A DNA stretch of 64,000 nucleotides, from positions 65,045 through 129,044 of the forward strand of contig CAYGQE010000006.1 of NCBI GenBank assembly GCA_964351995.1. Reading direction: 5' to 3'. Source of the stretch: an uncultured Acidimicrobiaceae bacterium (lineage in GTDB: Bacteria; Actinomycetota; Acidimicrobiia; Acidimicrobiales; SZUA-35). A program made the translations under genes and the position numbers. This document shows positions 40,537 to 55,229 of the stretch, piece after piece. Position 1 is the stretch's first letter. The number at the start of each line of letters is the position of its first letter. The notes under the pieces were generated by a model. That model was not told the origin of the DNA. It did no database searches and saw nothing but the letters and a program-made list of their open reading frames with translations.

Positions 40537-40947
40537 TCAGACGGCATCTGACCTGGGGCTTGCTGAAGCCGTCGGTCGCTGCGGCGTCATGTCGCGCCAC
40601 CGATCGGCCTCGAGGCGAGCTTCTGCCTCGGCGGGAATGGCGAGATAGCTGGCGTTCCATGAGCGAGTCGACGGGATCGACGAGAGGAACGACCACACGT
40701 AGCGCGAGCCGAAGCCGATGATGCCCTGTTCGTACCACTGGCGGACATGGACGATCTCGTGAGCAAGCAGGAGACTTCGCCCGTCGTTGGCAACGTCGGT
40801 GGCCAAGAAGACGTGGCGACCGAGCGTGATGCCGACGTACGAGCCAGGGAGGGCAGGGATCTCGTAGACCCGCACCCGAGCGGCCAGAGCACGGGGGATG
40901 TGGCGATAGCTGTTGAGTTCGATGGGGTTCAGCGGACGGCCGGGCAC
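40537..40947 (-). CDS. DUF4157 domain protein (HExxH zincin-like)
   Basis: LLLAHEIVHVRQW matches the DUF4157 HExxHxxQ signature. GTG start. Confidence 0.65.
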   Translation of the reverse strand: MPGRPLNPIELNSYRHIPRALAARVRVYEIPALPGSYVGITLGRHVFLATDVANDGRSLLLAHEIVHVRQWYEQGIIGFGSRYVWSFLSSIPSTRSWNASYLAIPAEAEARLEADRWRDMTPQRPTASASPRSDAV

Positions 40948-41166
40948 ATGACGAAGCTAGCCCGAGGCATCTTCGGTGGTGGTGCGATCCGGGTCGCTGC
41001 CTACCCTCCGACCGTGCCTGATCTTGTGCCAGACCGAACCTCGACCGCCCGTGTGCTCGTGGCACTTGCAGCTGCGGGTCTCGGGGGCGTGGTGATCGCT
41101 CGTTGGTATCCGGTTGCACGGCGGCAGCAACGATCGGCCTCCGGGGGCCCGGTTGCTGGCGGACGC

Positions 41167-42531
41167 ATGTCGATCCGAAACCTTCGTCTGGTCAGGCTCG
41201 GGGCCAAGAGTGGTGGCCGCTACGCAGTTCATCGTGCCCGCCGAACCTTTGCCTCGGCCGAGCGGGCGGCCACGCTCGACACCGAGTTCGAGCTGAAGAC
41301 CGCCGCTGATGTTGCCAACGAGCTCGGCAACATGAAGGGCGCCATGATGAAGATCGGCCAGATGGCCAGCTACATCGACACCGGTCTGCCCGATCATGTG
41401 CGCGACACACTGGCCTCCCTCCAGAGCAACGCCCCGCCGATGTCTGGCGAGCTGGCGGCAGAACAGATCGAACGCGAGCTCGGAAAACATCCATCCGAGA
41501 TCTTCGCCGAGTGGGACCCTGTCCCGATTGCGTCGGCCTCGATCGGTCAGGTGCACCGGGCCATCACCTTTGATGACCGAGCTGTTGCGGTGAAGGTGCA
41601 ATACCCGGGTGTCGCCGAAGCAGTGTCCGCTGACCTCGGCAACGCCGACTGGCTGTTCGGGATGTTGGCGTCGATGTTTCCCGGTCTCGAGCCCGGCCCG
41701 GTGGTCGCCGAGCTCAAGGAACGATTGGTCGAAGAACTCGACTACGTGGCGGAAGCACGCAACCAGCGTTACTACGCCGATTTCTTCGACCGGCATCCAT
41801 TCATCCACGTACCCCAGGTGCTCGATCAATACTCGACGGGCCGAGTGCTCACCACCGAACTCGCCATTGGTTCGACCTTCGCCGAGGTGTGCGAGTGGAG
41901 TGAAGAGGAGAAGAATCTTGCGGCGGAGACATTGTTCCGCTTCTCGTTCGGTTCGATCTACCGACTCCATGCGTTCAACGGCGACCCCCACCCCGGCAAC
42001 TATCTGTTCAACAAGGGTGGCAAGGTCACGTTCCTCGACTTCGGACTGGTCAAGCGTTTCGTCCCGACCGAGACCAAGCTCTTCGAGGACCTGATCCAGC
42101 TCATGGTGATCGATAGGGATCACGCGGGTTTCCGCAAGGTCGTCGAAGATGCTGGGCTTCTCGCCGTTGACGCACCGTTCACTGACGAGCAGGTGGAGGA
42201 GTACTTCATGTTCTTCTACCGCTACGTCATGACCGACGGCTTGGTCACGATCGATCAGGAGTATGCGTCGGCTGGTGTCGGCATGTTGTTCGATGCCAGC
42301 TCAGAACATGGCGAACTCATGCGGACGCTCAACGTCCCGCCGTCGTTCGTCGTGTTGCAGCGCATCACGCTTGGACTCATGGGGCTGTTTGCTCGGCTCG
42401 AAGCCACGGCCAATTGGCGCAAGGTCGCCGAAGAGTTGTGGCCCTTCGTTTCTGGCGAGCCATCGACGCCCACCGGCGTGGCGATCGAGGAATGGCGTCA
42501 GCAGCGAGGTCAGAGCCGGTTCGGCTTGTAG
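41167..42531 (+). CDS. ABC1/UbiB (AarF) family atypical kinase
   Basis: MKIGQMAS, ASASIGQVHRA and FNGDPHPGNYLF motifs. ATG 41167 is preferred because the longer ORF (40747) overlaps the divergent gene. Confidence 0.85.
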   Translation: MSIRNLRLVRLGAKSGGRYAVHRARRTFASAERAATLDTEFELKTAADVANELGNMKGAMMKIGQMASYIDTGLPDHVRDTLASLQSNAPPMSGELAAEQIERELGKHPSEIFAEWDPVPIASASIGQVHRAITFDDRAVAVKVQYPGVAEAVSADLGNADWLFGMLASMFPGLEPGPVVAELKERLVEELDYVAEARNQRYYADFFDRHPFIHVPQVLDQYSTGRVLTTELAIGSTFAEVCEWSEEEKNLAAETLFRFSFGSIYRLHAFNGDPHPGNYLFNKGGKVTFLDFGLVKRFVPTETKLFEDLIQLMVIDRDHAGFRKVVEDAGLLAVDAPFTDEQVEEYFMFFYRYVMTDGLVTIDQEYASAGVGMLFDASSEHGELMRTLNVPPSFVVLQRITLGLMGLFARLEATANWRKVAEELWPFVSGEPSTPTGVAIEEWRQQRGQSRFGL

Positions 42532-42536
42532 CTCCC

Positions 42537-43598
42537 TCAGGTGGGTCGCCCCGCACCTGAGGGGCGGGCGGCAGGAACACAGTGGTTGTCCGGACACATG
42601 TCCGGCCACGGCCCACTATCGCCGAGAAAGAGGCGAGGCTTCTCGTTGATCTGTTCTTCGAGGAGCTCTCTCACCATCGTGACGAAGCGAGGGTGTGCGC
42701 CAACCGTCGCCGCCCTGGTCATGCGCATCGACGCGCCCTCGGCGGCCTCGGCCGCTTGGGTGTCGAGGTCGAACATGACCTCCATGTGGTCACTGACGAA
42801 CCCGAGGGGAACCACCACCACATCGTCGGTCGAGCGACCGTGCAGATCGTGCAGGTGGTCGACGATGTCTGGCTCGAGCCAGGGCACCTGCGGGGGCCCG
42901 CTGCGGCTCTGCCACACAAGATCCCAATCGTCGGAGGTCCCAGCCAGGCCGCTGATGATCGACGCTGCTTCTCGAAGTTGATTTTCGTACTCGCTGGTCG
43001 CTGCCATGGAGAGCGGGATCGAATGTGCGGTGAAAACTACTCGAGGTTCGGCGCCATGGGCCTGGCGATGAGCGTCGACAGCCCGGGCCAGCTTCTCAGC
43101 GGCTGGCTCGCAGAAGCCCGGGTGGTTGTAGAACAGGCGAAGCTTCTGGAGTTCGATGTCGGCCCCGGTGACCGCTTCGCCTGCGGCAATCAAGTTCTCG
43201 CGGTACTGACGGCATCCCGAGTAGGAACTGAACGCCGAGGTGACGAACACGAAGACTTTCGTGATGCCGTCGTCGGCCATTTGCTGCACGGTGTCGTCGA
43301 GGTAGGGGGCCCAGTTGCGGTTGCCCCAGTAGACGGGAATCTCGATGTTGTTGGCAGCAAAATCGGCCTCGATGGCCCACTTCAGCTCACGGTTCTGGGC
43401 ATTGATCGGAGATACGCCCTCGAATTGGTCGTATTGCTTGGCCACCTCGGCGAGTCGTTCATCGGGGACGTTGCGGCCCTTGACGACATTGCGCAAGAAC
43501 GGCAGCACGTCGTCGGGTCCCTCTGGCCCCCCGAAGGACAACAGAAGCAGAGCAGTGGTGGGCGTGGTCACGGGGTCGACTCCGGGTTCGTGCGTCAT
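42537..43598 (-). CDS. hemH: Ferrochelatase (coproporphyrin ferrochelatase type)
   Basis: LLLSFGGPEGPDDVLPFLRNV N-terminus and FTAHSIP motifs. Confidence 0.9.
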   Translation of the reverse strand: MTHEPGVDPVTTPTTALLLLSFGGPEGPDDVLPFLRNVVKGRNVPDERLAEVAKQYDQFEGVSPINAQNRELKWAIEADFAANNIEIPVYWGNRNWAPYLDDTVQQMADDGITKVFVFVTSAFSSYSGCRQYRENLIAAGEAVTGADIELQKLRLFYNHPGFCEPAAEKLARAVDAHRQAHGAEPRVVFTAHSIPLSMAATSEYENQLREAASIISGLAGTSDDWDLVWQSRSGPPQVPWLEPDIVDHLHDLHGRSTDDVVVVPLGFVSDHMEVMFDLDTQAAEAAEGASMRMTRAATVGAHPRFVTMVRELLEEQINEKPRLFLGDSGPWPDMCPDNHCVPAARPSGAGRPT

Positions 43599-43632
43599 TC
43601 CTGGCAGTGTGCCGGTGGATGGACGCGCCTTT

Positions 43633-43658
43633 GCCGGCGCCCGGTGACGGGCGCCGGC
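43633..43658. terminator. Perfect 11-bp GC hairpin between the WhiB-like gene stop and the hemH start
   Basis: GCCGGCGCCCG gtga CGGGCGCCGGC. There is no clear U-tract. Confidence 0.45.
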
Positions 43659-43668
43659 AGGATGGGAT

Positions 43669-44073
43669 TCAGGAAGCGATCAACGCAGATGCGTCGATGT
43701 GCTCGATGCTGACGATTTCGACGCTGCTCTGGCTGTTGAGTTCAACGTCGACGGCAAGTTGTCGGCGAGCGTTATCTCGGGCTTGGATGACCGAGCGGCG
43801 ACTGGGTGAGCGAGGGGCGTATCCGGCGGCGGCGCGCTCTTCGTCGTTTTCGGCTCCCCAAAAGCCGTGTTCCCGGTTGAGGCGGGCGGTGCGGCGGCAC
43901 GGGAGCATCACGGGGCACGAGAGGCAGTAGCTCTTCGCCAGTGCTTCGCGCTCGACGCGTCGCTCGGGGCGCTCAGCCGATGGCCCGAAGAACACTTCGG
44001 TCAGGCCCTTGCACACTGCCTCGTCTTGCCAACTGAGATCAGTATCTGGGTGGGCGGTGAACTCGGTATCCAT
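43669..44073 (-). CDS. WhiB-family protein with about 55-aa C-terminal extension
   Basis: WQDEAVCKG...FFGP...AKSYCLSCPVMLPC...GFWGAENDEER gives four Cys in C-x29-C-x2-C-x5-C spacing. ATG 44073 is preferred because the N-terminus of the 170-aa ORF is hydrophobic and implausible. Confidence 0.75.
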   Translation of the reverse strand: MDTEFTAHPDTDLSWQDEAVCKGLTEVFFGPSAERPERRVEREALAKSYCLSCPVMLPCRRTARLNREHGFWGAENDEERAAAGYAPRSPSRRSVIQARDNARRQLAVDVELNSQSSVEIVSIEHIDASALIAS

Positions 44074-44104
44074 GACAGGTCCTTTGCGGGCTTCGACGAG
44101 TGCG

Positions 44105-44140
44105 TTTAGCACTAAAGGCAGTTTTAGCACTAAGACCGTG
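44105..44140. repeat. Two direct repeats with 18-bp period (TTTAGCACTAA core) 32-69 nt upstream of the WhiB-like start
   Basis: TTTAGCACTAAaggcagt TTTAGCACTAAgaccgtg. The core is an imperfect palindrome (TTAG ca CTAA) in the most AT-rich patch of the region. Confidence 0.6.
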
Positions 44141-44151
44141 AAAAAGGCAAG

Positions 44152-44189
44152 CAAAAGTTGACCCGTTGTGGCGAAGGACACAACTTTTG
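44152..44189 (-). terminator. Terminator-like hairpin inside the long intergenic region
   Basis: CAAAAGTTG...CAACTTTTG arms with inner GTTGTG/CACAAC pairing. On the minus RNA it is followed by CUUGCCUUUUUC. Confidence 0.4.
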
Positions 44190-44473
44190 GGGGACACCGT
44201 GAACGCGTCGGCGCTGTGCGCCTTTGCCGTTCTCAGAGTTCTTCGCTGGCGCTCAGAACTCGCATCCGGAAGGGGAGACGCAGGAACGTTGGCTGCAGGC
44301 TTGTTGTGGGGCTCTTTCAAGGGCGAGTTGAGAGCCCTCGGCGAGCAACTCGGGGTCCGCCCGAGGCCGCTAAGCCGAGGCGGACAGGTTGAGGACTTCA
44401 GCGGATAGGGAGAGCACGCAGTGCGTCAACCCGCTGAATCCAAGGAATAGTCGCGGCGCGCAGCGCCTATCCG

Positions 44474-45376
44474 CTATTCCCCTTGGCCGCCGGTTGAGGT
44501 GGCCGTACCTTGCTGGCGACGAGTGGCGGCGGCGTCGGCAATCAGCTTGGCTGCGGTTCGACTGTCGCTGTGCCAGAGATCAGCGCCGAGCGAGCGAGCG
44601 TGCTCCTCTGAGCAGATTGCCCCGCCGCCGATTGCAATCGGAATGTCGCCAAAGGCCGCTCGCAGGGCGCCGACGGTGTCAGTGGCTGATGCCTCGTGGT
44701 CGGGGCCGGTCAAGGACAAGGCCACGACGCAGTCGGCGAATCGCGTGCCGGCGGCAATGAAGGACGAGATGTCCGGGGACCCGCCGAGGTCGATGACGGT
44801 CACGCCGAAGGAGCGAATCAGGTCAGCGAACATCGCTGACGGAATCGAGTGAACGTCTCCAGGAGTCGCACCGACGACCACGATTCCTCGGCGACGACCC
44901 GGTGTGGCGAGGTGTGTGCCGAGTCTGCCGATGATGCGATGCGCAACGGCGGACGCCTTGTGCTCACTTGCGATCGAGAGTTCCCCGTCGGCCCACCGCT
45001 GGCCGATCGATTTGAGCGCAGGAGCCAACACATCGAGATGGATGCTGACGGGATCGTCATTCGAGGAAATCGATGCCTCGATCAAACGCCACGCTGCTAC
45101 TTCGTCGCCTGCGATCAGCGCCTCTTCGATGGTCATCGTGTCGTCGAGGTCGGTGACGCGTACTGCGTCGTTCTGGAATTCCGCCAAGTCGGCGGCGCTG
45201 ATCACCCACGAGCCCCGCTGCTTCTCGGCGTAGAGCAGCCCGAGTTTCACGTACCGGTACGCGGTCATGTAATGGACGCCGAGGTGGTCGGCCGCTTCTT
45301 GCAGTGTGAGGTCCCCAGTCGGCACGGCGCACACGCTACGAGATCTGCGTGCGGAGCGATGAACCGGTCGGATCAC
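44474..45376 (-). CDS. CarH/LitR-like regulator: excisionase/MerR-type HTH, W-x9-E-H helical bundle, B12-binding domain (paralog 1)
   Basis: HTH LTLQEAADHLGVHYMTAYRYVKLGLL; QRWADGELSIASEH (W-x9-EH); Rossmann VVVGATPGDVHSIPSAMFADL (DxHxx with Pro in place of Gly). Confidence 0.75.
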   Translation of the reverse strand: MIRPVHRSARRSRSVCAVPTGDLTLQEAADHLGVHYMTAYRYVKLGLLYAEKQRGSWVISAADLAEFQNDAVRVTDLDDTMTIEEALIAGDEVAAWRLIEASISSNDDPVSIHLDVLAPALKSIGQRWADGELSIASEHKASAVAHRIIGRLGTHLATPGRRRGIVVVGATPGDVHSIPSAMFADLIRSFGVTVIDLGGSPDISSFIAAGTRFADCVVALSLTGPDHEASATDTVGALRAAFGDIPIAIGGGAICSEEHARSLGADLWHSDSRTAAKLIADAAATRRQQGTATSTGGQGE

Positions 45377-45444
45377 CGATTGCGTTCGGTTTCATGGCAC
45401 CATCCAGCAGGTATGTGCCGAACTCCGATGACGGATGACATTTC

Positions 45445-46281
45445 GTGAGACTCGCAACATGGAATCTCTGGTGGAAGTTTGGGCCATGGGAGGCCCGCCA
45501 ACGCCCGATCGCAAGCGAGATCAACCTTGTTGACGCTGACGTCATGTGCCTCCAGGAGGTCTGGGCAGATGCTGATCATGACCAGGCTGAGTTGCTGGCC
45601 GCCTCGTCGGGAAGACATCTCGCCCGCACGACGAATGCCGACGGTATTGCTCATCCCTTCGGGAACGCCGTGCTGAGCCGCTGGCCGATCCAGCAGCATC
45701 ACACGATTGTCCTTCCCGGCAGCGACGGGGAACCAAGCCATCGCTCGGCGCTCTTCTGTGAGATCGACGTACCCGGGGCTACACATCCCTGGTGGGTGGT
45801 CAGTACCCACCTCGAGTGGCGCTATTCGGCGAGCGTTCTTCGTCAGCGCCAACTCGAAGCGATCGTGGCCGAATGTGCGCGAGTCCGAGCGTTGGTCCCA
45901 GACAGCATCGTGGCGATCGGTGGTGATTTCAATGCTGTAGCGGACAGCGACGAGATCCGTCGGCTCACCGGGCTGTCGGTTCCGTACAGCGAGCGTCTCA
46001 TTTTCACCGACGGATGGGCCGCTGTCACTGACGAACCCGGTCACACTTGGAGTCGAAGCAATCCGCATTCCAGCAATGCTCAGTGGCCGCGGCGCCGGGT
46101 CGATGCAGTCTTCGTTTCTTGGCCGCGCCCGAAGCCAACGGGCAACCCCATCGACGCCGCGCTTTTTGGCCTCGATGCGCTCCCGACGGGCGAGGGCGAT
46201 GCGGAGATCGTGCCGTCTGATCACTACGGCGTTGTCGTCGAACTCGATCGACGGACGACTGCTGACATCGAGGCCTCTTGA
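45445..46281 (+). CDS. Endonuclease/exonuclease/phosphatase (EEP) family protein
   Basis: MRLATWNLWW...DADVMCLQEVW and C-terminal SDHYGVVVEL motifs. Confidence 0.8.
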   Translation: MRLATWNLWWKFGPWEARQRPIASEINLVDADVMCLQEVWADADHDQAELLAASSGRHLARTTNADGIAHPFGNAVLSRWPIQQHHTIVLPGSDGEPSHRSALFCEIDVPGATHPWWVVSTHLEWRYSASVLRQRQLEAIVAECARVRALVPDSIVAIGGDFNAVADSDEIRRLTGLSVPYSERLIFTDGWAAVTDEPGHTWSRSNPHSSNAQWPRRRVDAVFVSWPRPKPTGNPIDAALFGLDALPTGEGDAEIVPSDHYGVVVELDRRTTADIEAS

Positions 46282-47207
46282 TGGGGAACGCTCCACCGCC
46301 ACCGCCGTCGGGAGCGCCCGCACCCGGCCCGCCGCCACCGACGCCGGCGATCGTCGAGCACCCGCCGTTGCTGCTCATCTCTGATTGGCTGACCGATACG
46401 ACGAGGACACTTGTCAAGGGGTTTGGCGACTTCTTCGCTGTTCTCACGGTGCTAGCGATCATCAGCACCGCACTGAGTGCGCCGCTGCTTTGGATCAGTT
46501 CCGCTGATGCTGTTCTGACTCGCGACGACGACAACCTCTTCAACGGCATCGAAGGCATGACGGGAACGCACGGACTCATGGTTGCTGGTGGCTTGCTCAT
46601 CTCAGCTGTTGGTCAGGTTCTGCTCTTCACCGCCGCCACCAATCACATCGATCGTTTGCGCTCCGGTGACTCGCCTCGCTGGCAGGAGACGTTGGGCGCA
46701 CTCGTTGCCCGAGGGCCTCGTGTCGTCGGCGTCGTGGCGCAGGTGGTGTTCGTTGCGTTCGTGATTCTGTTGATCAGTGGTGTGCTCGGCGGCATCGGCC
46801 TTGGCGGAATTGCGATCGCCATTGCGTTCGCTTTGATCGTGCTGCTTTGGGTGCGGGCGGCTGTTGCGTCGACCCATGCTGCGCTTGGCGGGGCCGGAGG
46901 GAGTCTTCGCCACAGTCTTGCCTGGACGAAGGGACTGACCCTTCCGCTTCTGGGCCGACACATCGTCTTGGTGACGATTTGCGTCGGTTTGCTGTTGATT
47001 GGTTCAATCGTGTCCGCCCCCTTTCAGAGCTTGTCCGGGGCGGCGGCGTCGACCGAGGGCGACCTGGTTCTCCGCGACGTCATCGGGAGCAGCCTTTCTG
47101 CCTTTGTCGCAGTGCAGTTCATCAACGCTCTCGTCTCCGGGTTCATCGCAGCGTTGTGGGCGGCCGCCATGCTCTCGCTTTATCGAGGCGAAGCCGCTGA
47201 GCGCTAG
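46281..47207 (+). CDS. Polytopic membrane protein with Pro-rich N-terminus
   Basis: PPPPPSGAPAPGPPPPTP followed by about 6 hydrophobic helices. The ATG overlaps the EEP gene stop (TGATG). Confidence 0.55.
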   Translation: MGNAPPPPPSGAPAPGPPPPTPAIVEHPPLLLISDWLTDTTRTLVKGFGDFFAVLTVLAIISTALSAPLLWISSADAVLTRDDDNLFNGIEGMTGTHGLMVAGGLLISAVGQVLLFTAATNHIDRLRSGDSPRWQETLGALVARGPRVVGVVAQVVFVAFVILLISGVLGGIGLGGIAIAIAFALIVLLWVRAAVASTHAALGGAGGSLRHSLAWTKGLTLPLLGRHIVLVTICVGLLLIGSIVSAPFQSLSGAAASTEGDLVLRDVIGSSLSAFVAVQFINALVSGFIAALWAAAMLSLYRGEAAER

Positions 47208-47221
47208 ATAGTGTCGCCCGG

Positions 47222-49261
47222 ATGGCGGGGGACACCGGAGTCGACCAACAGCAACTCGATCAGGGGCAGCTGGATCGTGCCGCATCGTGCCTCGAGGCAA
47301 TGAGCAATCGGGCAACCAAGATCCACGAGGCTGCACAGACGCGAGCCGAGCAGGAGAAGAGCGTCGATGCTCGGATCGCAGCAGCCAAGATGGAAGAGCG
47401 TCGCGCTGCGATCGATGCCGGCAGCGGACCGTTGTGTTTTGGCCGGATCGATGAAGACGGTCCAAGTCGCAGCCAACGTGACACCTGGTATGTCGGGCGT
47501 CGCCACATCGAGGACGCCGAGGGGAACCCCGTCGTCGTCGACTGGCGGGCACCGGTGTCAGCGCCGTTCTATCGAGCCACTTCGGTCGACCCCTGCGGTC
47601 TGGTCAGGCGTCGACGCTTCAGTATCGATGAGGGCCACATCACCAACGTGTTCGACGAGGATCTCACCGACCCGGACGGAGCGAGTGGCGGCCTGCCCGA
47701 TCCGCTGCTCGCTGAACTCGATCGTGGACGCTCGGGGCAGATGCGAGACATCGTGGCCACCATCGCCGGCGAGCAGGACGAGGTGATCCGCTCCGGCATC
47801 AATGAGCTGCTGATCGTGCAGGGAGGTCCGGGAACGGGCAAGACCGCCGTTGGCCTGCACCGTGCCGCGTATCTGCTGTTTGCCCACCGGGATCACTTCG
47901 CTGACCATCAAGTGCTGGTGATCGGGCCGAACCCGGTCTTCCTCCGCTACATCGCTGAAGTGCTGCCGTCGCTTGGCGAGCGGTCGGTGGCGCAAACCAC
48001 GGTCACTGGGTTGTTGGTAGCGAAGTATCGAGTGCGGTCTGAAGACCCAGCAACCGTCGTGCAGCTCAAGAGCGACGAGCGGATGGCCGAGGTCATTCGT
48101 CATTCGATGCGGCGCCGGATCGTTGCTCCCGTCGATGGTCTCGAACTGCGTTCGGGCGTGTCGAAGGTGCGGTTCGATCGTGACGCCGTCGATCAAATGA
48201 TGCAGCGTGCGCTCGACCGCAATCTCGCCTTGAACACGGCGAGGGACGTGTTCCGCAGCATCGTGTTGCAGGAGGCCTGGCGGCAGTTCGAAGCCCGACC
48301 GGGATCAGATCCCGGTCACCAGCCGGCATTTGTTGCAGCGATTCGTTCTGATCCCGGGTTCAAGAAGGACGTCGACCGGATGTGGCCAGCGTTCTCTCCG
48401 CCGGCGGTGATTCGAGAACTGTTGGGCTCCAAGACCAAACGCCGGGCTGCCGCTGACAGCCTCCTCGACCCAGCCGAACAAGCCTTGTTGCATCGGCCGT
48501 CGGCAAAGAAGGCCAACGAGGAACTCTGGTCGGCCGCTGATCTACCGCTGTTGGATGAGGCAACTGATCTTGCCGTCGGCGTACTGCCGGCGTACGGCCA
48601 TGTCGTGGTCGATGAGGCGCAAGACCACGGGGCCATGGCATTGCGAATGCTTGGGCGCCGAGCGAAGAACCACTCGATGACGGTGCTCGGCGACCTCGCA
48701 CAAGCAACTGCTCCCGGGGCAATCGAAGCATGGGACGAAGCAGCTCGCCATCTGTGCGGTGATCCCGACGGAGCGGTCGTGCGAGAACTCACCGTTGGCT
48801 ACCGCGTGCCGGCTGCCATTCTCGATGTGGCCAACCAGCTCCTTCGTGAGGCGGCGCCCTCGGTGACGCCCGCTCGGTCCATCCGGCCCGGTGGCGAGCC
48901 CCCGAGTCACTTCGATTTCAGCGACGACGAACAGATGGTCGCCGCGGTCGGCGACGCCATTGCGGCAACGACAGATCAACAGGGGCGAGCCTCGATTGCC
49001 GTGATCGCGCCTGTATCCCACCATGATCTGTTGCTCGCAGAAGTCCCTGGTCTGGTCCGCTTCGGAACGGGAACAGCGGTGAACTTGCCTGGTACCGAAG
49101 CCATTGCTCTGCTTGATCCAGATCAGGCCAAAGGGCTCGAGTTCGACGCCGTCGTTGTGGTCGACCCTCCAGCGATCCGTTCGGCCCCGAACGGATCGCG
49201 GCAGCTCTACGTGGCCATGACGCGAGCGGTGCAGACTCTCGCCATGGTCGAACCAACCTGA
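47222..49261 (+). CDS. HelD/HelR-like UvrD-superfamily helicase (RNA-polymerase-associated type)
   Basis: N-terminal FGRIDEDG...WYVGRRHIED..G.PVVVDWRAPVSAPFYRAT, Walker A GGPGTGKT, VVDEAQD, and C-terminal GLEFDAVVVV. Confidence 0.8.
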   Translation: MAGDTGVDQQQLDQGQLDRAASCLEAMSNRATKIHEAAQTRAEQEKSVDARIAAAKMEERRAAIDAGSGPLCFGRIDEDGPSRSQRDTWYVGRRHIEDAEGNPVVVDWRAPVSAPFYRATSVDPCGLVRRRRFSIDEGHITNVFDEDLTDPDGASGGLPDPLLAELDRGRSGQMRDIVATIAGEQDEVIRSGINELLIVQGGPGTGKTAVGLHRAAYLLFAHRDHFADHQVLVIGPNPVFLRYIAEVLPSLGERSVAQTTVTGLLVAKYRVRSEDPATVVQLKSDERMAEVIRHSMRRRIVAPVDGLELRSGVSKVRFDRDAVDQMMQRALDRNLALNTARDVFRSIVLQEAWRQFEARPGSDPGHQPAFVAAIRSDPGFKKDVDRMWPAFSPPAVIRELLGSKTKRRAAADSLLDPAEQALLHRPSAKKANEELWSAADLPLLDEATDLAVGVLPAYGHVVVDEAQDHGAMALRMLGRRAKNHSMTVLGDLAQATAPGAIEAWDEAARHLCGDPDGAVVRELTVGYRVPAAILDVANQLLREAAPSVTPARSIRPGGEPPSHFDFSDDEQMVAAVGDAIAATTDQQGRASIAVIAPVSHHDLLLAEVPGLVRFGTGTAVNLPGTEAIALLDPDQAKGLEFDAVVVVDPPAIRSAPNGSRQLYVAMTRAVQTLAMVEPT

Positions 49262-49271
49262 CCGAACAACG

Positions 49272-49325
49272 CTCGTTCTCGTACTCAACAGGCCCAGAAG
49301 TGGGAATTCTGAGTACCAGAACGAG
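49272..49325. terminator. Bidirectional hairpin between convergent helD-like and topoisomerase B genes
   Basis: 16-bp arms CTCGTTCTCGTACTCA / TGAGTACCAGAACGAG with one mismatch and a 22-nt loop. Confidence 0.55.
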
Positions 49326-49337
49326 TTCGGGGGTTGG

Positions 49338-51359
49338 TCAGACGTCGAGGGCTTCGGAGTCAATGAGCGTGCTGTTGTTGACGATGTAGTCGCGACGGGT
49401 GGCGACGTCGCTACCCATCAGCACCTCGAAGAGCTTTGCTGCTTCGATGGCGTGCTCGGCATCAGCCATGGTGAGTCGCTTGAGCACACGAGTGCTGGGG
49501 TCGAGCGTGGTGTCCCGGAGCTCGTTGACGTTCATCTCGCCGAGCCCCTTGAATCGCTGCCATCGTTTCTCGGCCGAGAAGCCGTGCTCGGCGTGGAGCT
49601 GTTCCCGTTGCTCATCGCTGTAGGCGTAAATCTGCTCACCCCGGTGCTTCACCGCAAACAGCGGTGGCTGTGCGGCGTAGACCATGCCCGCCTCGAGCAA
49701 CGGCCGCATCTGGTGGAAGAGCAACGTGAGGAGCAAACAGCGAATGTGCGAACCATCGACGTCGGCGTCGCACAGGATGATGATGCGGCCGTATCGACAC
49801 GATGCGAGATCGAAGTCTTTGCCGGAGCCGGCACCGATCGAGGTGATCAGGGCTTGGGCCTCGGCGTTGTCGACAACTTGTTTCAGCGTGGCCTTGCCGG
49901 CGTTGACGACCTTGCCCCGCAGCGGAAGCACCGCCATCATCTCGGAGTTGCGACCCTGCTTGGCCGGGCCGGCAGCGGAGTTTCCTTCCACGATGAGAAG
50001 CTCGGAATCGGGCCCATGCAAGCGGCAGTCGGCCAGCTTGTCCGGCATGCCATTGGAGGAAAGGCTCGATGCCTTCCGGCGCGCTTCAAGCTGCTGCTTC
50101 GACAGCACACGGTTCAAAATGGCCTGCGCCATCTTGTCTCGCATGGCGTTGACCTGGTTCTTTTTGCCGCCGCCATCGATCCAGTTGGCCAACCCGGCTC
50201 GGGTGGCTTCGTTCACGATCTTCTGGATCGAGGGTGTGCCGAGCTCTTGCTTGGTCTGGCCCTTGAACTGCGGCTCGGCGAACGTGACCTTGACCGCAGC
50301 TACGAGGCCCTCTTGAGCATCGCTGGGTAGTGCTTTGTCGTTGCCGTCCTTGGCGAGCTTCTTGAGCTTCTTCATGTCGGCAAGCAGGTGCTCGTTGGCG
50401 ATCTTGGTGAGCGCTCGCTCGAATCCTTGGACGTGAGTGCCACCTTCAGAGGTGGGGATCGTGTTGACGAAGCTGACGATGGTCGAGTCGAACCCCTTGA
50501 CCCATCGAGCCGCAATGTCGACCGAACACGGTCGAGCGACGGTGGTCATCTTGCCATCGACGGGCACTCGCTCTTCGAAGCTGTCCTCGGCCCGGATGGT
50601 GATGATGTCGGTGACGTTCTCACCGACCGACAGGTAGTCGACGTAATCGGACAGGCCGCCGGCAGCCACGAACTCTTCAGGCTCGCGGCCAGGGCCGCGC
50701 TTGTCGGTCAGCTTGATGTGCAGACCGGGAACCAAGAAGCAGACACGGGCAACATGGTCGCGAATGCGGTCGTACTCGATGCGGGCGTCGGGATCGAAGA
50801 TGTCGAGATCTGGCCAGTAGCGGACTCGGGTGCCGGTGCGTGACGGCGGAATCGACTTGACCTTGGTCAACTTCGAGCCGGGCTTGAACGTACCATTTTT
50901 CAGGTAGTTGCCAGGCAGTCGCTCGTTGAACACCAGACGCCAGGTGGCGCCGTCACGGTCGACTTCGGCGACGACCTTGGACGCCAATGCGTTGACCACC
51001 GAAGCGCCGACACCGTGCAGGCCTCCCGAGGCGCTGTAGGCGCCAGAGCCGAACTTGCCGCCGGCATGGAGTTCTGTGAAGACGACTTCGAGCGCCGTGC
51101 GACCATCTGGCTTCTTGCCGACAGGGATGCCGCGACCGTCGTCGGACACCTCGACCGAACCGTCCTTGTGGAGCGTGACTTCGATGTGGGAGGCAAAGCC
51201 AGCGGCCGCCTCGTCGACGGAGTTGTCGATGATCTCCCACACAAGGTGGTGGAGGCCATCGTTGCCGGTGCCGCCGATGTACATACCTGGCCGCTTGCGG
51301 ACCGCGTCGAGGCCCTCGAGGACCTGGATCTTTGATGCGTCGTACTGGTCTTTTGCCAT
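49338..51359 (-). CDS. Type IIA DNA topoisomerase subunit B (ParE/GyrB family)
   Basis: VLEGLDAVRKRPGMYIG, GGLHGVGASVVNALS, the Toprim EGNSAGG, and PLRGKVVN motifs. Confidence 0.9.
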   Translation of the reverse strand: MAKDQYDASKIQVLEGLDAVRKRPGMYIGGTGNDGLHHLVWEIIDNSVDEAAAGFASHIEVTLHKDGSVEVSDDGRGIPVGKKPDGRTALEVVFTELHAGGKFGSGAYSASGGLHGVGASVVNALASKVVAEVDRDGATWRLVFNERLPGNYLKNGTFKPGSKLTKVKSIPPSRTGTRVRYWPDLDIFDPDARIEYDRIRDHVARVCFLVPGLHIKLTDKRGPGREPEEFVAAGGLSDYVDYLSVGENVTDIITIRAEDSFEERVPVDGKMTTVARPCSVDIAARWVKGFDSTIVSFVNTIPTSEGGTHVQGFERALTKIANEHLLADMKKLKKLAKDGNDKALPSDAQEGLVAAVKVTFAEPQFKGQTKQELGTPSIQKIVNEATRAGLANWIDGGGKKNQVNAMRDKMAQAILNRVLSKQQLEARRKASSLSSNGMPDKLADCRLHGPDSELLIVEGNSAAGPAKQGRNSEMMAVLPLRGKVVNAGKATLKQVVDNAEAQALITSIGAGSGKDFDLASCRYGRIIILCDADVDGSHIRCLLLTLLFHQMRPLLEAGMVYAAQPPLFAVKHRGEQIYAYSDEQREQLHAEHGFSAEKRWQRFKGLGEMNVNELRDTTLDPSTRVLKRLTMADAEHAIEAAKLFEVLMGSDVATRRDYIVNNSTLIDSEALDV

Positions 51360-51415
51360 GGGGGAGAAAGGTGCTGCGTTCGTGTTCGGCGGGCGGTGGT
51401 GTTGCTGGGCGCGGG

Positions 51416-53851
51416 CTACCAGCGAAGCGAGCCAATGGCGAGGATACGCCTTGGGGCTGAGCTGCTCGGGCCATCCCGTCGAGTTGGGCGAATGGCCACA
51501 GGCTCGGGGGTGTTGTCGTGCTTGGTTGGGGCGTCGGGCTGGCCGACGAGGGCAACGATGCGTTCGGGATTGCCGATCCAGGCAAAGTCGAGACGGCTCT
51601 CGTCTTTGAACTTGGTGATGCGAACACCGCCGGCGCCACGACCCTTGCTGGGCACCTCGGCGGCGTCGGTCGACTTGACCGTGCCGAGGTCGGTGACGGT
51701 GATGATCACGGTGTCGCCGGTGATGGGACCGGCGGCCAACACCCTGGCGTTGCCCTTCACACCAACGCCTGCGACACCCTTGGCGGCAGCGCCCTGCACG
51801 CTGATGCCTTCGGCGGGTGTGCGGAGGGCCTGAGCGTCGTTGGTGATGAACACGACGTCGAGGGACGGGTTGATCAGCTTGGCGGATACTACGGTGTCAC
51901 GGTCGGCCAGCTTCATGATTGGCTTGCCATCGCTGACTTCGGTCAGCACCGAGCGCTCGATTCGCTTGGCTGCGCCACCTGCAGTGGCCACGAGTAGTTG
52001 GTCGCTCGAATCGTCGGCGGATGCACTGACGATGGCGATGATGTTCTCGCCTCGCTCGGCTCCGAACGTCTCGGATGCATCGCGGCCTCGGCTACGGCCG
52101 CCGACTTCGGCCAGATCGAGCGCTCGGCGACGCAGCAATCGGCCCTTGTCTGTGATGGCCAACACGTCGCTGGCCAGGCTTCCAACGGCAACGGTATCGA
52201 TGACGTCGTGGCGGCCTGGGGTGTAACTCCGGGAGGTGCCGAGTGGCTCACGGCCGACGACACCGGAGGCCGAGAGGCTGATGAGGCAGGGCTCGTCGGC
52301 GGTGGCGAGATCGATCTCGGGAGCGGCTTCGTTGAGCGTCTTGATCTCGTCCGGGGAGATGATGCGGGTGCGACGAGGCGTCGGGTACTCCTTGACCAAC
52401 TCGCCGAGTTCGCGAATGACGATGGTCCGGCGCCGCTGCTCCGACGCAAGAATCTTCTCGAGATCGTCAATCTCTTCGAGCAGCAGTGTTCGCTCCTCGA
52501 CGAGGTCGGTGTAGGCAAGTGCGGTCAGGCGACGGAGTCGCAGTTCGAGAATTGCTTCGGCCTGGATCTCGCTGAGGCTGAGGGCTTCCATCAAGCCGGT
52601 GCGAGCGGCTTCGGAGTTGGCAGCGTTGCGAATGATCGACACGACGAGGTCGATGTTGTCGATGGCGATCAGGTAGCCCTCGACCCTGTGCAGACGTTCT
52701 TGCCGCTGACGGAGCCGGTACTCGGATCGTTTCACGACCATGTCGAGGCGGTGGTCGATGTAGTACTGGCAGAGGTCGTAGAGGCCGAGGGTGGTGGGCA
52801 CGCCATCGACGAGGACGACGTTGTTGATGCCGAAGGTCTCTTCGAGCGGTGTGAGTCGGTAGAGCTTCTGGAGAAGTACCGCCGGGTCGACGCCGGTCTT
52901 GCATTCGATCACCAGGCGCAAGCCAGAGTTGTGATCCGACAGGTTCTTCATGTCGGAGATCCCTGAGACCTTGCCGGCGATCACCAACTCCTTGACCTTG
53001 GCCATGACCCGCTCGACACCGATCATGTAGGGCAGTTCGGTGATGACGATGCCCTTGCGTGCTCGGGTGATGTCGACGATCTCGGCAGTGGCCCGGAGAC
53101 GAACCGAACCTCGACCGTGTTCGTACGCATCGTTGATGCCATCGTCGATCATGGTGCCGCCGCTCGGGAAGTCGGGGCCGGGCACGAGCTCACGCAGTTG
53201 CTCGAGTGTGGGCTTCGGTCGACGTTGACTCATCACGAGCTTGATGGCTTCGTAGATCTCGCCGAGGTTGTGCGGAGCCATGTTGGTGGCCATGCCGACG
53301 GCGATGCCCGTGGTGCCGTTGACCAACAGGTTTGGCAGCAGTGCAGGGAGGTATTGCGGCTCGACGTTCTCGCCGTCGTAGGTCGGGCGGAATTCGACGG
53401 TCTCTTCGTCGATCTCGGCCAGCAGGTGCAGTGCGGCGTCGCTGAGCCGGGCCTCGGTGTAACGCATCGCAGCTGGGGGGTCATCGAGGCTGCCGAAGTT
53501 GCCTTGGGGGTGGATCAGCGTGATCGACCGGGCGAAGTCTTGGCCCATGCGGACCAGGGTGTCGTAGATCGCACTGTCGCCGTGGGGATGGAACTTGCCC
53601 ATGACCTCGCCGACGACGCCGGCGCACTTGCGGTGGGGGCGGTCGGGAAAGAGGCGCATCTCGCGCATGGCGAACAAAATGCGCCGCTGAACGGGCTTGA
53701 GGCCGTCACGCACGTCAGGGATGGCACGCGAGGTGATGACAGACAGCGAGTACGCGAGAAACGACTCGCCGAGCTCTTCAGAGACCGGGACGTCGATGAC
53801 TTCTCGAGCAAAGGGCAGCAATTCACCCTGTGATGACATGGTTCGTTCCAT
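51416..53851 (-). CDS. Type IIA DNA topoisomerase subunit A lacking a GyrA box (ParC-like)
   Basis: [17 protein letters not shown], and the active-site AAMRYTE. No QRRGGKG-type GyrA box appears at the start of the C-terminal domain (the region reads [17 protein letters not shown]). Confidence 0.9.
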
Positions 53852-53853
53852 TT

Positions 53854-53925
53854 CTTCCGGCTGGCCGAGATCTTCTGGCTGGCCGAGTGCTTCACGTTGG
53901 CAGAGTGCTTCACGTTGGCAGAGTG
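53854..53925. repeat. Four tandem 18-bp direct repeats between the B12-regulator stop and the topoisomerase start
   Basis: Plus strand: CTTCCGGCTGGCCGAGAT CTTCTGGCTGGCCGAGTG CTTCACGTTGGCAGAGTG CTTCACGTTGGCAGAGTG. The last two units are identical. The array ends 3 nt from the ATG at 53851. Confidence 0.85.
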
Positions 53926-53953
53926 ATACTAGCCAGCTCCGAACGTCTGTTCG

Positions 53954-54799
53954 TCACGCCGGGCGGGTGTGTGATGGTGCGAGCTTGTCGAATTGGTCGA
54001 GCAGACCTTCGACATCTGGCGCCCAGATGGTGGCACCGGCAGCCTCGGCTTCCACCCGGCCGGGCACGCCTGCCCCGCCGAGTGCAACGTGAGCGTTTGG
54101 TCGGCGAGCACGAATCGCCGTGATGGTGTCCTTGGCCTGAGCGAGACTCGCACTGGTGGTCGAAGAGATGACGACACCGATGAACGGGCGGTCAGCCGAG
54201 CCCATGTCCATCACTTCGAGGAATGACTCGGCAGGAGTGTCGGCCCCGAGGTCTGTGACCTCGAAGTGGCGGCCCCGGAGGAGGTCGGCGATGATCGCGG
54301 TCGTCAGCGCGTGGGCGTCACCGGAGACCAAGCCGACCACGATGTGGCCGCGGCCAGTACCGCGGCGATGAAAACGAGGTCCGAGTCGGGCCGTGATCCG
54401 AGACGCAATGGTGGTCGCCTGGTGTTCGTCGAACACTTCGATCTCGTTGTTGGCCCACCGTTGACCGATCGAGCGCATGGCAGGGATGAGCATCCGGAGG
54501 TGGATCTCGGCTGGCTCGGCACCGGACGTCAGCGCTTGGGAGACAACGGCCCAGGCGCCAGGCTCGTCAGCAACGAGGAGTCGGTCTTCGAGCTGCGCAG
54601 CGGCTCGAGTGCGTACGCCCTCGCTGGGCTTTGAGTCGTTGCCGTTGGCAAGTGCTTCGATGTCTGCCGAGTCGACAAACCATTGACCGCCTTCTTTGGT
54701 GGCCGCCAAGCGCCCCGTTCGCACATAGCGGTACACGGTCATGTAGTGCAGTCCGAGGTTCTCGGCTGCAGCCCGAAGGCTGATCGAATCCGCCGGCAT
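53954..54799 (-). CDS. CarH/LitR-like regulator: excisionase/MerR-type HTH, W-x9-E-H helical bundle, B12-binding domain (paralog 2)
   Basis: HTH ISLRAAAENLGLHYMTVYRYVRTGRL; QRWANNEIEVFDEH (W-x9-EH); Rossmann IVVGLVSGDAHALTTAIIADL. Confidence 0.75.
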   Translation of the reverse strand: MPADSISLRAAAENLGLHYMTVYRYVRTGRLAATKEGGQWFVDSADIEALANGNDSKPSEGVRTRAAAQLEDRLLVADEPGAWAVVSQALTSGAEPAEIHLRMLIPAMRSIGQRWANNEIEVFDEHQATTIASRITARLGPRFHRRGTGRGHIVVGLVSGDAHALTTAIIADLLRGRHFEVTDLGADTPAESFLEVMDMGSADRPFIGVVISSTTSASLAQAKDTITAIRARRPNAHVALGGAGVPGRVEAEAAGATIWAPDVEGLLDQFDKLAPSHTRPA

Positions 54800-54884
54800 C
54801 AGGGGATGATCTCATACTGGCGACGCATGCTGTGGGATTCACCGGGAAGGATTCATGAGCCCGGTGGGCCCGTCGTCGAAGGGA

Positions 54885-55121
54885 TCAGCGGCGACGGCGA
54901 CGACGGTGGGCGTCAATCTTGCGCGCTGACTTGATGACACCCTCGAGGCGCTCGGTGAGTTCGGCCGGCTCTTCTCGGGCTTCGGTATCGAGTTCAGGAG
55001 CCAAGGCTTCGAGGATGGCGCTGACGCTCACGCCCTGTTCGGCGGCGAATCCGTGCCACTGATCGTGGGCGTCATCGCTGACATAGGCATGCAGGGCCTT
55101 GCGGCCATTGTCTTGAGACAT
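54885..55121 (-). CDS. Small hypothetical protein, possible ribbon-helix-helix fold with poly-Arg tail
   Basis: ALHAYVSDDAHDQWHGFAAEQGVSVSAILEAL resembles a strand-helix-helix unit. The protein ends in HRRRRRR. Confidence 0.4.
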   Translation of the reverse strand: MSQDNGRKALHAYVSDDAHDQWHGFAAEQGVSVSAILEALAPELDTEAREEPAELTERLEGVIKSARKIDAHRRRRRR

Positions 55122-55229
55122 GGTGTCGTTCTCTCTGTTCGCATCCTTGCGGATATCACTCTTCGCGGCGGTGCCAATACTTCCGGCGTCATGTTTGTAT
55201 CACGATCTTGCACCGGAGCGTTGCAACTC

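Follow-up and report, generated by a model that had tools for sequence, protein, structure and literature searches.

Paired palindromes upstream of a whiB-ferrochelatase locus are candidate operators of a CarH/LitR-like B12 regulator in Acidimicrobiia

A pair of 12-bp palindromes at 44103-44136 of the window (the whole 64-kb stretch of DNA analysed here) lies between a B12-type regulator gene, reg1, and a whiB-like gene, and the same palindrome recurs beside homologous regulator genes in many genomes. On balance, we favour the reading that these palindromes are the operator pair of a CarH/LitR-like repressor of an HTH_17 branch, gating whiB and probably the ferrochelatase gene hemH. We put at about even chances the broader proposal of a wide B12-photoreceptor branch with an excisionase-type HTH and a 12-bp palindrome often paired at 18 bp, with a whiB3-like gene and ferrochelatase under light/B12 control.

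Conserved palindromes precede whiB and hemH

The features upstream and downstream of the whiB start are:
44167..44182: TGTGTCCTTCGCCACA, a CRP/GlxR-like inverted repeat with its centre some 60 nt before the inferred start
44146..44151, minus strand: -35-like element CTTGCC, 11-12 nt upstream of palindrome 1, present in 10/10 aligned whiB promoters
44121..44136: palindrome 1, putative operator half on the side away from whiB; 44124-44133 hold its core, TTAGTGCTAA in gene sense; PWM 18.2 bits
44103..44118: palindrome 2; core TTAGTGCTAA at 44106-44115; PWM 21.3 bits
43669..44073, minus strand: WhiB-like Fe-S transcription factor, 134 aa, PF02467, ATG at 44073
43632..43659: perfect 12-bp stem with a 4-nt loop and no T-run after it, between whiB and hemH (inverted repeat I1)
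42537..43598, minus strand: ferrochelatase (hemH/cpfC type), directly downstream of whiB; PF00762, E 1.5e-79

On the plus strand, the exact 11-mer TTTAGCACTAA occurs at 44105-44115 and again at 44123-44133, positioned 30-70 nt upstream of the WhiB3-like gene. The first-pass annotation had read these as direct repeats with an 18-bp period. The spacing of 18 stands, and the units are in fact two palindromes, aTTTAGYRCTAAAt, separated by 18 bp centre to centre, in which the repeated part is only the 10-12 bp TTAG-YR-CTAA. TTAGNNCTAA is found only at these two places in the 64 kb, where shuffles expect 0.00, and the whole window holds no further PWM match of at least 12 bits.

The palindromes are kept at whiB orthologs, as is, usually, their periodicity: about 20 orthologous Acidimicrobiia loci carry one or two copies upstream of whiB, usually 18 bp apart. 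Spacing of exactly 18 bp, seen in L001, L002, L003, L008, L013, L026 and L043, recurs in independent lineages, and many loci have a single palindrome (L021, L041, L010, L007). Across 10 aligned orthologous whiB promoters, the TTAG..CTAA columns are invariant at both sites and the 8-bp spacer between the cores varies, as does the central YR (CG and TA in L008 and L043). In orthologs the second copy frequently reads TTAGCACTAA, as the first does on the opposite strand. Two established boxes were tried as the identity of TTAGCACTAA and rejected: neither HrcA-CIRCE (TTAGCACTC-N9-GAGTGCTAA) nor the IdeR/DtxR iron box (TTAGGTTAGGCTAACCTAA) has a window match with 3 mismatches, and CIRCE differs from the whiB-side palindrome in that the central YR of the latter varies.

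The CTTGCC element may act as a -35-like promoter element, in which case palindrome 1 would overlap the spacer and -10 region and palindrome 2, some 30 nt before the whiB ATG, would lie around the transcription start. We infer this overlap of operator and promoter only from the conserved CTTGCC and its spacing, since no promoter turned up between 43500 and 45500 in a generic scan for sigma-70 promoters and terminators. The 18-bp spacing itself places the two palindromes on different helix faces, a geometry that counts against our main reading.

Farther upstream, TGTGTCCTTCGCCACA is the sole TGTG-N8-CACA match within the window. A TGTG..CCACA-type box with at most one mismatch is present in the seven closest promoters (L203, L002, L001, L172, L003, L084 and L185) and absent from the L008 and L043 whiB promoters. 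The M. tuberculosis whiB1 promoter has CRP (Rv3676) sites, and the arrangement here is similar in that a TGTG-N8-CACA box of CRP type precedes the presumed start of a Wbl gene by roughly 60 nt. Among solved structures, however, the WhiB protein here scores better with WhiB3 than with WhiB1 (WhiB3, 8cyf, E 2.5e-11; WhiB1, 9e-5; WhiB7, 0.02). We know of no B12-regulator operator at a whiB promoter.

The WhiB gene called in the first-pass annotation is real. Its product scores 41.7 bits against PF02467 (cut-off 23.6 bits) and has the four cluster-ligand cysteines (C21-x28-C50-x2-C53-x5-C59) and the G[VIF]WGG-type turn, here G70-F-W-G-A, of the class; it also carries a 50-aa C-terminal extension, and the assembly index has no record that matches the protein exactly. 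The gap between whiB and hemH is only about 28 nt in orthologs (gene tables of L082 and L083), and hemH is probably co-transcribed with whiB. Regulator-whiB-hemH synteny is kept in L001-L003, L008, L021, L043, L084, L185 and L203.

The regulators join a B12 sensor module to an excisionase-type HTH

Two paralogous regulator genes lie in the window:
44474..45325, minus strand: reg1, 283 aa, identified by its Pfam domains and identical to public protein P0001
53954..54799, minus strand: reg2, paralog of reg1 with the same architecture (Pfam domains, paralogy, Wx9EH)

Each protein couples two B12-binding parts, the four-helix B12-binding_2 domain and a Rossmann B12-binding domain, to an excisionase-type HTH (HTH_17); neither has an additional Pfam domain, and photoglobin is not among the Pfam models reported. 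Reg1 had been annotated as a 300-aa protein at 44474-45376. The gene is confirmed and its length revised: GTG 45325, giving 283 aa, is the likely start and is preferred over the alternative GTG at 45376 because it is the start called in the public record and because orthologs conserve the N-terminus VP(T/S/A)GD. The paralogy that the first-pass annotation proposed is borne out (36% identity, E 2e-53), as are the shared HTH and the W-x9-EH motif, whose residues are W111..E121-H122 in reg1 and W115..E125-H126 in reg2; the W, E and H are invariant in 26 orthologs.

The B12 motif that had been noted in reg1 is likewise present, as D157-V-H159-S-I-P-x41-S204-L-T206-x26-G233-G234, and the D-x-H..S-x-T..GG pattern, with H159, T206, G233 and G234 in it, is invariant in the 26 orthologs. 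Two of its details count against our main reading: in reg1 the canonical Gly is replaced by Pro, and the reg2 version, DAH...SST...GG with a longer loop, departs from the strict canonical spacing.

The DNA-binding domain (DBD) of the regulators matches HTH_17 in Pfam (39.7 bits), and the MerR and MerR_1 models find no match in these proteins. The TIGR01764 'excisionase' model scores 23.9 and 28.1 bits, just below its 28.8-bit cut-off, and with the DBD alone the matches are no more than weak (E about 0.8): a phage Xis and a MerR-like protein. In an AF2 model of full-length reg1 (pLDDT 91.4), residues 8-56 form a helix-helix-hairpin-helix, and the best Foldseek matches are a photocobilin, full-length CarH and CtMerR (E 1e-10 to 1e-12); a single-sequence AF2 model of the DBD only was poor (pLDDT 65, without a wing) and was left out of the fold search. 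For a MerR-like winged helix, so compact a site as a 12-bp palindrome would be unusual, and it differs from the direct repeats of CarH; both points also count against our main reading. The recognition helices of the two paralogs, GVHYMTAYRYV and GLHYMTVYRYV, are near-identical, so both proteins are expected to read one motif and not two different repeats.

The regulator family comprises 193 clusters at 50% identity (E <= 1e-30) and is carried by at least 595 stretches in species-representative genomes. The branch as a whole runs to about 200 such clusters; the species-level genomes that carry it number in the hundreds and are labelled Actinomycetota or Dormibacterota. In IMG, some family-member records are named 'light-induced transcriptional regulator'.

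The palindrome is associated with the regulator family across genomes

We examined 80 genome loci chosen solely by regulator homology. In 39 of the 80 genomes, which span several labelled phyla, the palindrome adjoins the homologous regulator gene. The 80 loci contain 61 palindrome sites, compared with about 1 in shuffles, and 52 of the 61 fall within the 21% of sequence that flanks the regulator gene (1.1 kb upstream or 0.6 kb downstream; p 1.5e-26), with none inside the gene itself. The PWM behind this count was trained on these same sites; an untrained exact-pattern count gives the same picture. In many cases the palindrome stands 20-70 nt ahead of the start of the regulator gene itself, the layout that is classic for autoregulation.

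The tie also holds in the reverse direction, from site to regulator. In a metagenome scan for the double palindrome, the high-GC matches that have TTTAG..CTAAA-type flanks have a regulator homolog less than 1 kb away in each case with sufficient flanking sequence. The many low- and mid-GC matches encode no regulator homolog and were treated as unrelated; examples are GCTTAGCGCTAAGC twice upstream of a protein of about 255 aa, and two copies of GTTAGCGCTAAC. The site-bearing loci, which come from several labelled phyla, share no gene other than the regulator. Together with the conservation at whiB, these data strongly back the view, already put forward in the first-pass annotation, that regulator, repeated element and whiB form one functional unit. 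What points to the regulator as the probable binder is this co-localisation.

Elsewhere, the genes behind the palindrome are the regulator itself, sigma-70 and ECF sigma genes and SRPBCC genes, and the palindrome also precedes an FAD amine oxidase-DUF1365-CFA synthase operon. Taken as targets, these genes of other taxa would suit a regulon that answers to light or photo-oxidative stress. On the other side of the balance, 41 of the 80 regulator loci, and also reg2, have no nearby site despite the same recognition helices, which counts against our main reading. Regulators that have a nearby site did not differ in their recognition helix from those that lack one, a comparison that is biased because the locus search itself selected on VHYMTAYR.

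Comparison with known B12 photoreceptors

CarH/LitR proteins are the paradigm of B12-based light sensing and widely used optogenetic parts; their AdoCbl-dependent tetramer binds DNA in the dark and dissociates in the light. CarH and class I LitR are known from Thermus thermophilus, Bacillus megaterium and Myxococcus xanthus as AdoCbl-dependent photoreceptor repressors, in which an N-terminal winged helix of the MerR type recognises operators built of tandem direct repeats. CarH homologs are defined by two motifs together, Wx9EH and E/DxHx2G-x41-SxV/T-x22-27-GG (PMC8156234). Reg1 and reg2 have Wx9EH and a His-on B12 motif in common with these proteins, Foldseek aligns full-length CarH chains with reg1 over about 285 columns, and the putative operator, as in CarH systems, would lie over the target promoter. 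In contrast to CarH, the DBD matches HTH_17/excisionase models and not MerR, and sequence searches align the B12 part only; the NCBIfam CarH equivalog NF052513 scores 55.1 and 55.9 bits against a 400-bit cut-off, with model positions of about 78-270 aligned. Whereas the CarH operator consists of three or four tandem 11-bp direct repeats, nAnnTnnACAn (PMC8156234), the putative operator here is one or two 12-bp palindromes, and the predicted targets are whiB and hemH instead of carotenoid genes. The label 'CarH-like' given to these proteins at first pass thus fits the sensor module and not the DNA-binding domain model or the operator type.

The closest solved B12 modules (E 6e-19 to 1e-14) are those of CtMerR from Chloracidobacterium thermophilum (PDB 8JBS) and the photocobilins (8J2W, 8J2X, 8J2Y). 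CtMerR binds AdoCbl and responds to light as a tetramer, and its DBD is divergent, with no DNA site described (PMC11796333); no operator or regulon is reported for it, and both its crystal and our comparison cover the B12 domain only. Photocobilins have a bilin-binding or GGDEF output where reg1 has an HTH. In a photoglobin survey, HTH_17 figures as one of the outputs joined to B12-binding_2/B12-binding modules, and WhiB as one of those encoded in photoglobin operons (PMC8717448). Proteins of that survey differ in having an extra photoglobin domain, and no DNA site, regulon or whiB-hemH target is described for them (PMC8717448). In the literature we searched on the palindrome, HTH_17/B12 regulators, Acidimicrobiia LitR and LitR-ferrochelatase links, the operator and regulon are undescribed.

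A proposed model for light-dependent control of whiB-hemH

We propose the adjacent reg1 as the most likely binder of the palindromes; reg2, with its nearly identical recognition helix, is a plausible second. The regulators probably belong to a widespread CarH/LitR-like branch in which the AdoCbl photoreceptor module is combined with an HTH_17 winged helix that replaces the MerR-type domain. By analogy with CarH, an AdoCbl-loaded oligomer would occupy both palindromes (four half-sites) in the dark and block RNA polymerase; in the light, AdoCbl would be photolysed, the oligomer would dissociate and whiB-hemH would be transcribed, with help from a CRP-type activator at the upstream site. Such a circuit might adjust Fe-S/redox control and drain photosensitising porphyrin intermediates under illumination.

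If correct, this model predicts aTTTAGYRCTAAAt, often paired 18 bp apart, as the operator of a distinct and widespread CarH/LitR branch, with a regulon of the regulator gene, sigma factors and lipid-modifying photo-oxidative-stress genes, to which whiB-hemH is added in Acidimicrobiia. It would offer a testable hypothesis on the light response of uncultured or rarely cultured Acidimicrobiia, and would tie photoreception to porphyrin/haem homeostasis and Wbl redox control in abundant non-phototrophic aquatic and soil bacteria. To our knowledge, no B12 photoreceptor has previously been linked to a Wbl regulator together with ferrochelatase. Being compact, the DNA site could also find use in synthetic light switches for high-GC hosts.

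Alternative explanations and the topoisomerase locus

The same operator and binder could respond to cobalamin availability instead of light, acting as the protein counterpart of a B12 riboswitch that tunes the haem branch through ferrochelatase. That ferrochelatase is among the predicted targets speaks for this possibility, as does the fact that haem and B12 have shared precursors. CarH-type repression requires B12 in any case (PMC8156234), so a dependence on B12 is built in. We nonetheless regard this reading as unlikely: Wx9EH is a motif linked to AdoCbl photoreception, and in other taxa the genes behind the palindrome are not those of tetrapyrrole metabolism but typical photo-oxidative-stress genes (CFA synthase/DUF1365/amine oxidase, SRPBCC, sigma factors). 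We are more doubtful still that the palindrome is the site of another transcription factor, such as a partner of the neighbouring sigma factors, with the B12 regulator binding at some other place. A site is absent from half of the regulator loci, sigma factor genes adjoin the site in several loci, and our assignment of the binder is itself a deduction. Against this, the regulator alone accompanies every site-bearing locus, the site so often precedes the regulator's own start, and the palindromic form and pairing fit an oligomeric repressor and not a sigma promoter.

Repression by a DNA-bound regulator, as we favour, is also to be weighed against pairing of the two copies in the mRNA leader, as an 11-bp stem with a 6-nt loop whose effect would be on translation, attenuation or RNA stability. 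In L001-L003 and L084 the two copies are exact reverse complements of each other, and the central mismatches in the window would be G-U pairs. Leader folding is, however, no better than in shuffles (z -0.44), the minimum-energy fold leaves the copies unpaired, many loci are single-palindrome (L021, L041, L010 and L007 among them) and L043 would have an A-C mismatch; nor does Rfam assign the whiB leader to a family at the gathering score or at E below 0.7. To this account we give the least credence of all. Scarcely more credible is the model of the first-pass annotation, in which each paralog has its own 18-bp direct-repeat operator and WhiB and a topoisomerase form a small B12-controlled regulon. 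Both genes do lie directly downstream of a paralog with an 18-bp periodicity in each intergenic region, and the placement of reg2 next to the topoisomerase operon is a conserved arrangement. The relevant features are:
53940..53953: LexA/SOS-box-like palindrome CGAAC-N4-GTTCG, directly after the reg2 stop codon
53926..53931, minus strand: -10-like hexamer TAGTAT of the topoisomerase operon, read from the sequence
53854..53925, minus strand: 18-bp tandem array in the 5' UTR of the topoisomerase operon (TRF period 18, 4.0 copies)
49338..53851, minus strand: second type II topoisomerase operon (Pfam and NCBIfam matches)
51416-53851, minus strand: topoisomerase A subunit
49338-51359, minus strand: topoisomerase B subunit

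The array itself exists as had been described, with 4 copies at a period of 18, but its geometry does not match that at whiB: the unit is not palindromic, lies in the 5' UTR and varies in copy number. Relatives have 0 copies (L082, L083), 1 (L205, L084), 2 (L208, L207) or 3 (L206), against 4 here, and L208 has only 2 even though its reg2 is 99% identical. Such variation among close relatives points to a variable-number tandem repeat and not to a conserved operator. No conserved bases are common to the array and the whiB-side site; the 'CTGCC' resemblance once noted between them is a matter of chance, as most of it falls within the 8-bp spacer that is not conserved at whiB. Further evidence against a topoisomerase branch of the regulon is the near-identity of the paralogs' recognition helices, and so is the absence of any palindrome of at least 11 bits around the reg2 orthologs L205-L207 (10 kb upstream, 1.5-7.8 kb downstream).

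The array sits downstream of the conserved LexA-like box and -10 element. The actinobacterial LexA (SOS) box consensus is TCGAAC-N4-GTTCGA; CGAAC-N4-GTTCG has a single match within the window and is kept in L082, L083, L084 and L205-L208. As a GAAC-N4-GTTC palindrome beside a promoter and conserved in orthologs it qualifies as a LexA box, LexA binding itself being a prediction. The -10-like hexamer is kept as TAGTAT or TAGAAT in L084 and L205-L208, and the A subunit probably starts at ATG 53839, since its conserved N-terminus MSSQGEL begins at this second ATG. The topoisomerase operon therefore looks SOS-controlled through a LexA-type box, not B12-controlled, a correction that matters as well.

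Two paralogous CarH-like regulators in the window

The first-pass annotation had described two paralogous B12-type regulators, here reg1 and reg2, and pairwise comparison bears this out (36% identity, E 2e-53). They lie in two minus-strand blocks:

44474-45325, minus: reg1
400 nt, between reg1 and whiB: intergenic region
43669-44073, minus: WhiB-family gene (whiB)
42537-43598, minus: ferrochelatase gene (hemH), after whiB
53954-54799, minus: reg2, ~9 kb upstream of the reg1-whiB-ferrochelatase block

An ABC1 kinase-like gene is convergent to the reg1 block, while the order at the upstream block, on the same strand, is a 78-aa ORF, reg2 and a second type II topoisomerase operon (subunit A, then B). 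The window has a GC content of ~63%, and its nearest relatives are metagenome-assembled Acidimicrobiia. The WhiB protein has the four cysteines; among solved structures its nearest match is WhiB3, nearer than WhiB7. The 40747-55600 neighbourhood (ABC1 kinase-like gene, whiB, UvrD-like helicase, glutaredoxin) may resemble that of M. tuberculosis whiB7 (Rv3197 to Rv3198A). The UvrD-like helicase between both loci (47222-49261, plus strand) has sub-cut-off matches to HelD/HelR "RNA polymerase recycling motor" models, and synteny of the block eep-membrane protein-HelD-like gene is kept in all close relatives.

In an alignment of 26 regulator orthologs, the recognition-helix stretch VHYMTAYRYV, Trp111/Glu121/His122 (Wx9EH), His159, Thr206 and Gly233-Gly234 are invariant, the last three elements forming part of the reg1 B12 motif D-x-H-x2-P-x41-S-x-T-x26-GG. 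CarH homologs are defined by the Wx9EH and B12 motifs together (PMC8156234). [quoted passage not shown] Among solved structures, photocobilins and CtMerR are nearest in sequence, whereas alignment to CarH is confined to its B12 module (E 1.5e-9) and the score with the NCBIfam CarH model is 55 bits, where the cut-off is 400. The DNA-binding domain is matched by HTH_17 and, just under the cut-off, by excisionase models, but not by MerR models. From these conserved motifs, structure and sequence matches and model assignments, we conclude that reg1 and reg2 are CarH-like sensors whose DNA-binding domain has diverged. Their family is large, with 193 representatives at E ≤1e-30 in a library clustered at 50% identity and at least 595 stretches in species-representative genomes. 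The HTH_17 plus B12 architecture is already listed in a domain survey (PMC8717448), and the divergent photoreceptor CtMerR has been characterised, its DNA site being unknown (PMC11796333).

A conserved palindrome upstream of whiB accompanies the regulator

Upstream of whiB, an exact 11-mer is repeated at 44105-44115 and 44123-44133, each copy containing the palindrome TTAG-YR-CTAA. Within the 64 kb, the pattern TTAGNNCTAA is confined to these two copies (0.00 expected), and a search allowing one mismatch found no further sites in the window. Across 10 aligned orthologous whiB promoters TTAG..CTAA is invariant in both copies, and copy 2 is often the reverse complement of copy 1. Most of the "CTGCC" of the first-pass annotation falls in the 8-bp spacer, whose sequence is variable. 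More distant Acidimicrobiia (L021, L041, L010, L007) carry a single palindrome and a longer leader, and in three loci (L060, L067, L068) the order is palindrome(s), whiB, regulator, hemH. Given these differing orders, regulator, WhiB and ferrochelatase make up one conserved module in which the genes can be permuted.

A second WhiB-family paralog at ~20005-20229 (minus strand; 34% identity over 76 aa to the whiB at 43669-44073) has no palindrome site nearby. The reg1-whiB intergenic region (44200-44470) is ~250 nt longer than in the related loci L001-L003; two imperfect inverted repeats lie in the gap (44251-44263/44323-44335 and 44400-44409/44466-44475), and Rfam returned no match in 44200-44470.

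We examined 80 genome loci chosen solely by regulator homology. Their non-redundant members contain 46 exact matches to the pattern, almost all of them in intergenic sequence and typically 7-50 nt before a gene start. A position weight matrix finds 61 sites, compared with ~1 in shuffled loci; this matrix was trained on the sites it counts, and the untrained exact-pattern count agrees. The stretches that flank the regulator gene make up 21% of the sequence and hold most of these sites (52/61; binomial p 1.5e-26); none in the 80 loci lies inside the gene. Loci with sites come from, among others, MAGs labelled Mycobacterium, Streptosporangiaceae, Bifidobacteriaceae and Dormibacterota. Paired palindromes are spaced by exactly 18 bp in 7 loci, and by 16, 21 or 50-51 bp elsewhere. 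In the reverse direction, a search of metagenome contigs for two palindromes 18 bp apart returned many AT-rich chance matches and unrelated matches; for high-GC matches with TTTAG..CTAAA-type flanks, a regulator homolog lies within 1 kb in every case with sufficient flank.

Binding of the palindromes by some other protein is unlikely, since no other gene than the regulator's is shared by every locus that has a site. The copies might instead act as an RNA hairpin, but the predicted fold is no better than that of shuffles (z -0.44) and such a hairpin is impossible at single-site loci. Searches for CIRCE and for the IdeR box gave no match in the window, even with 3 mismatches allowed. Our reading of the palindromes as putative operators of a regulon is drawn wholly from comparative genomics; we found no literature description of the palindrome operator, of the regulon of the HTH_17-B12 branch, or of B12-regulator control of whiB or hemH.

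Elsewhere, the palindrome precedes, among others, the regulator's own gene, genes for sigma-70-type and ECF sigma factors and for SRPBCC proteins, an operon of the FAD amine oxidase-DUF1365-cyclopropane/furan fatty-acid synthase type, and genes for an NmrA/DUF2867 protein and for a 228-aa unknown protein. As a set, these genes resemble regulons already described for light and photo-oxidative stress; ufaM, for instance, belongs to the P. putida LitR regulon. On nine high-GC Actinomycetes-type contigs (L013, L026, L029, L030, L052, L066, L114, L148, L199), a single or double palindrome precedes an unknown 228-257 aa protein without a Pfam or NCBIfam match, and the regulator comes directly after this protein.

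A different double palindrome, GCTTAGCGCTAAGC twice at 18 bp, lies just upstream of a conserved ~255-aa protein (MK..SIQ.EMRVARQTW..) on seven metagenome contigs of 52-55% GC (L100, L131, L139, L152, L167, L177, L124). Because these contigs carry no B12-regulator homolog, it looks like an unrelated system.

The palindromes may overlap the whiB promoter

Palindrome 1 (44121-44136), the copy farther from whiB, has a conserved CTTGCC 11-12 nt upstream. If the spacer is 17-18 nt, the -10 element may fall in the right half of this palindrome (TAAAAC in the window, TAAGTT in the related loci L008 and L043, TAAATT in L021), and transcription may start inside palindrome 2 (44103-44118). A generic sigma-70 scan of the region returned no promoter, so we propose these positions as hypotheses. 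Sites over the -10 and +1 would fit repression. By analogy with CarH, oligomers carrying AdoCbl would sit on the palindromes in darkness and come off upon photolysis; two palindromes would offer four half-sites, matching a tetramer. Ferrochelatase takes away photosensitising porphyrin, and both it and WhiB make sense as candidate light-induced functions. The regulator may possibly sense B12 availability rather than light, and the two are not exclusive.

The only CRP/GlxR-type box in the window (TGTG-N8-CACA; TGTGTCCTTCGCCACA, 44167-44182) precedes the inferred whiB start by ~60 nt; the closest orthologs retain it exactly or with a single mismatch. M. tuberculosis whiB1, which is under CRP control, offers a parallel.

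The topoisomerase-side repeats are a variable array

The four-copy 18-bp array at 53854-53925 is real, but it is not conserved among relatives, which have 0-4 copies: 2 in a relative with 99%-identical reg2, 3, 2, 1 and 1 in others, and 0 in relatives at 62% identity. On this sequence comparison we regard the unit as a variable-number tandem repeat. Around reg2 orthologs (10 kb upstream, 1.5-7.8 kb downstream) there are no palindrome sites of ≥11 bits, and the recognition helices of reg1 and reg2 are nearly identical. The variable array and these two observations leave unsupported the first-pass proposal of paralog-specific 18-bp operators and a shared WhiB-topoisomerase regulon, although reg2 always adjoins the topoisomerase operon.

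Directly after the reg2 stop codon lies CGAAC-N4-GTTCG (53940-53953; conserved in the related loci L082-L084 and L205-L208), followed by a -10-like TAGTAT (53926-53931; TAGTAT or TAGAAT in L084 and L205-L208). Actinobacterial LexA-controlled promoters have this layout. The LexA/SOS-box-like palindrome and hexamer suggest that the topoisomerase operon is DNA-damage inducible, and place the array in its 5′ UTR. Each 18-bp unit ends in a purine-rich, Shine-Dalgarno-like GAAG, and the conserved start at 53839 probably takes its ribosome-binding site from the last unit.

Between the glutaredoxin gene and the 78-aa ORF lies a highly conserved non-coding block, CGTGATACAAACATGACGCCGGAAGTATTGGCACCGCCGCGAAGAGTGATATCCGCAAGGATGCGA (~55125-55205, minus strand), shared with L084 and L205-L208 and, in its 5′ half, with L082 and L083. 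The block may represent either a promoter/operator or a leader RNA. The ORF itself (54885-55121, minus strand) is conserved, always precedes reg2 and has no Pfam or NCBIfam match; from its sequence (KALHAYVSDD..GVSVSAILEAL, Arg-rich tail) it looks like a candidate ribbon-helix-helix DNA-binding protein.
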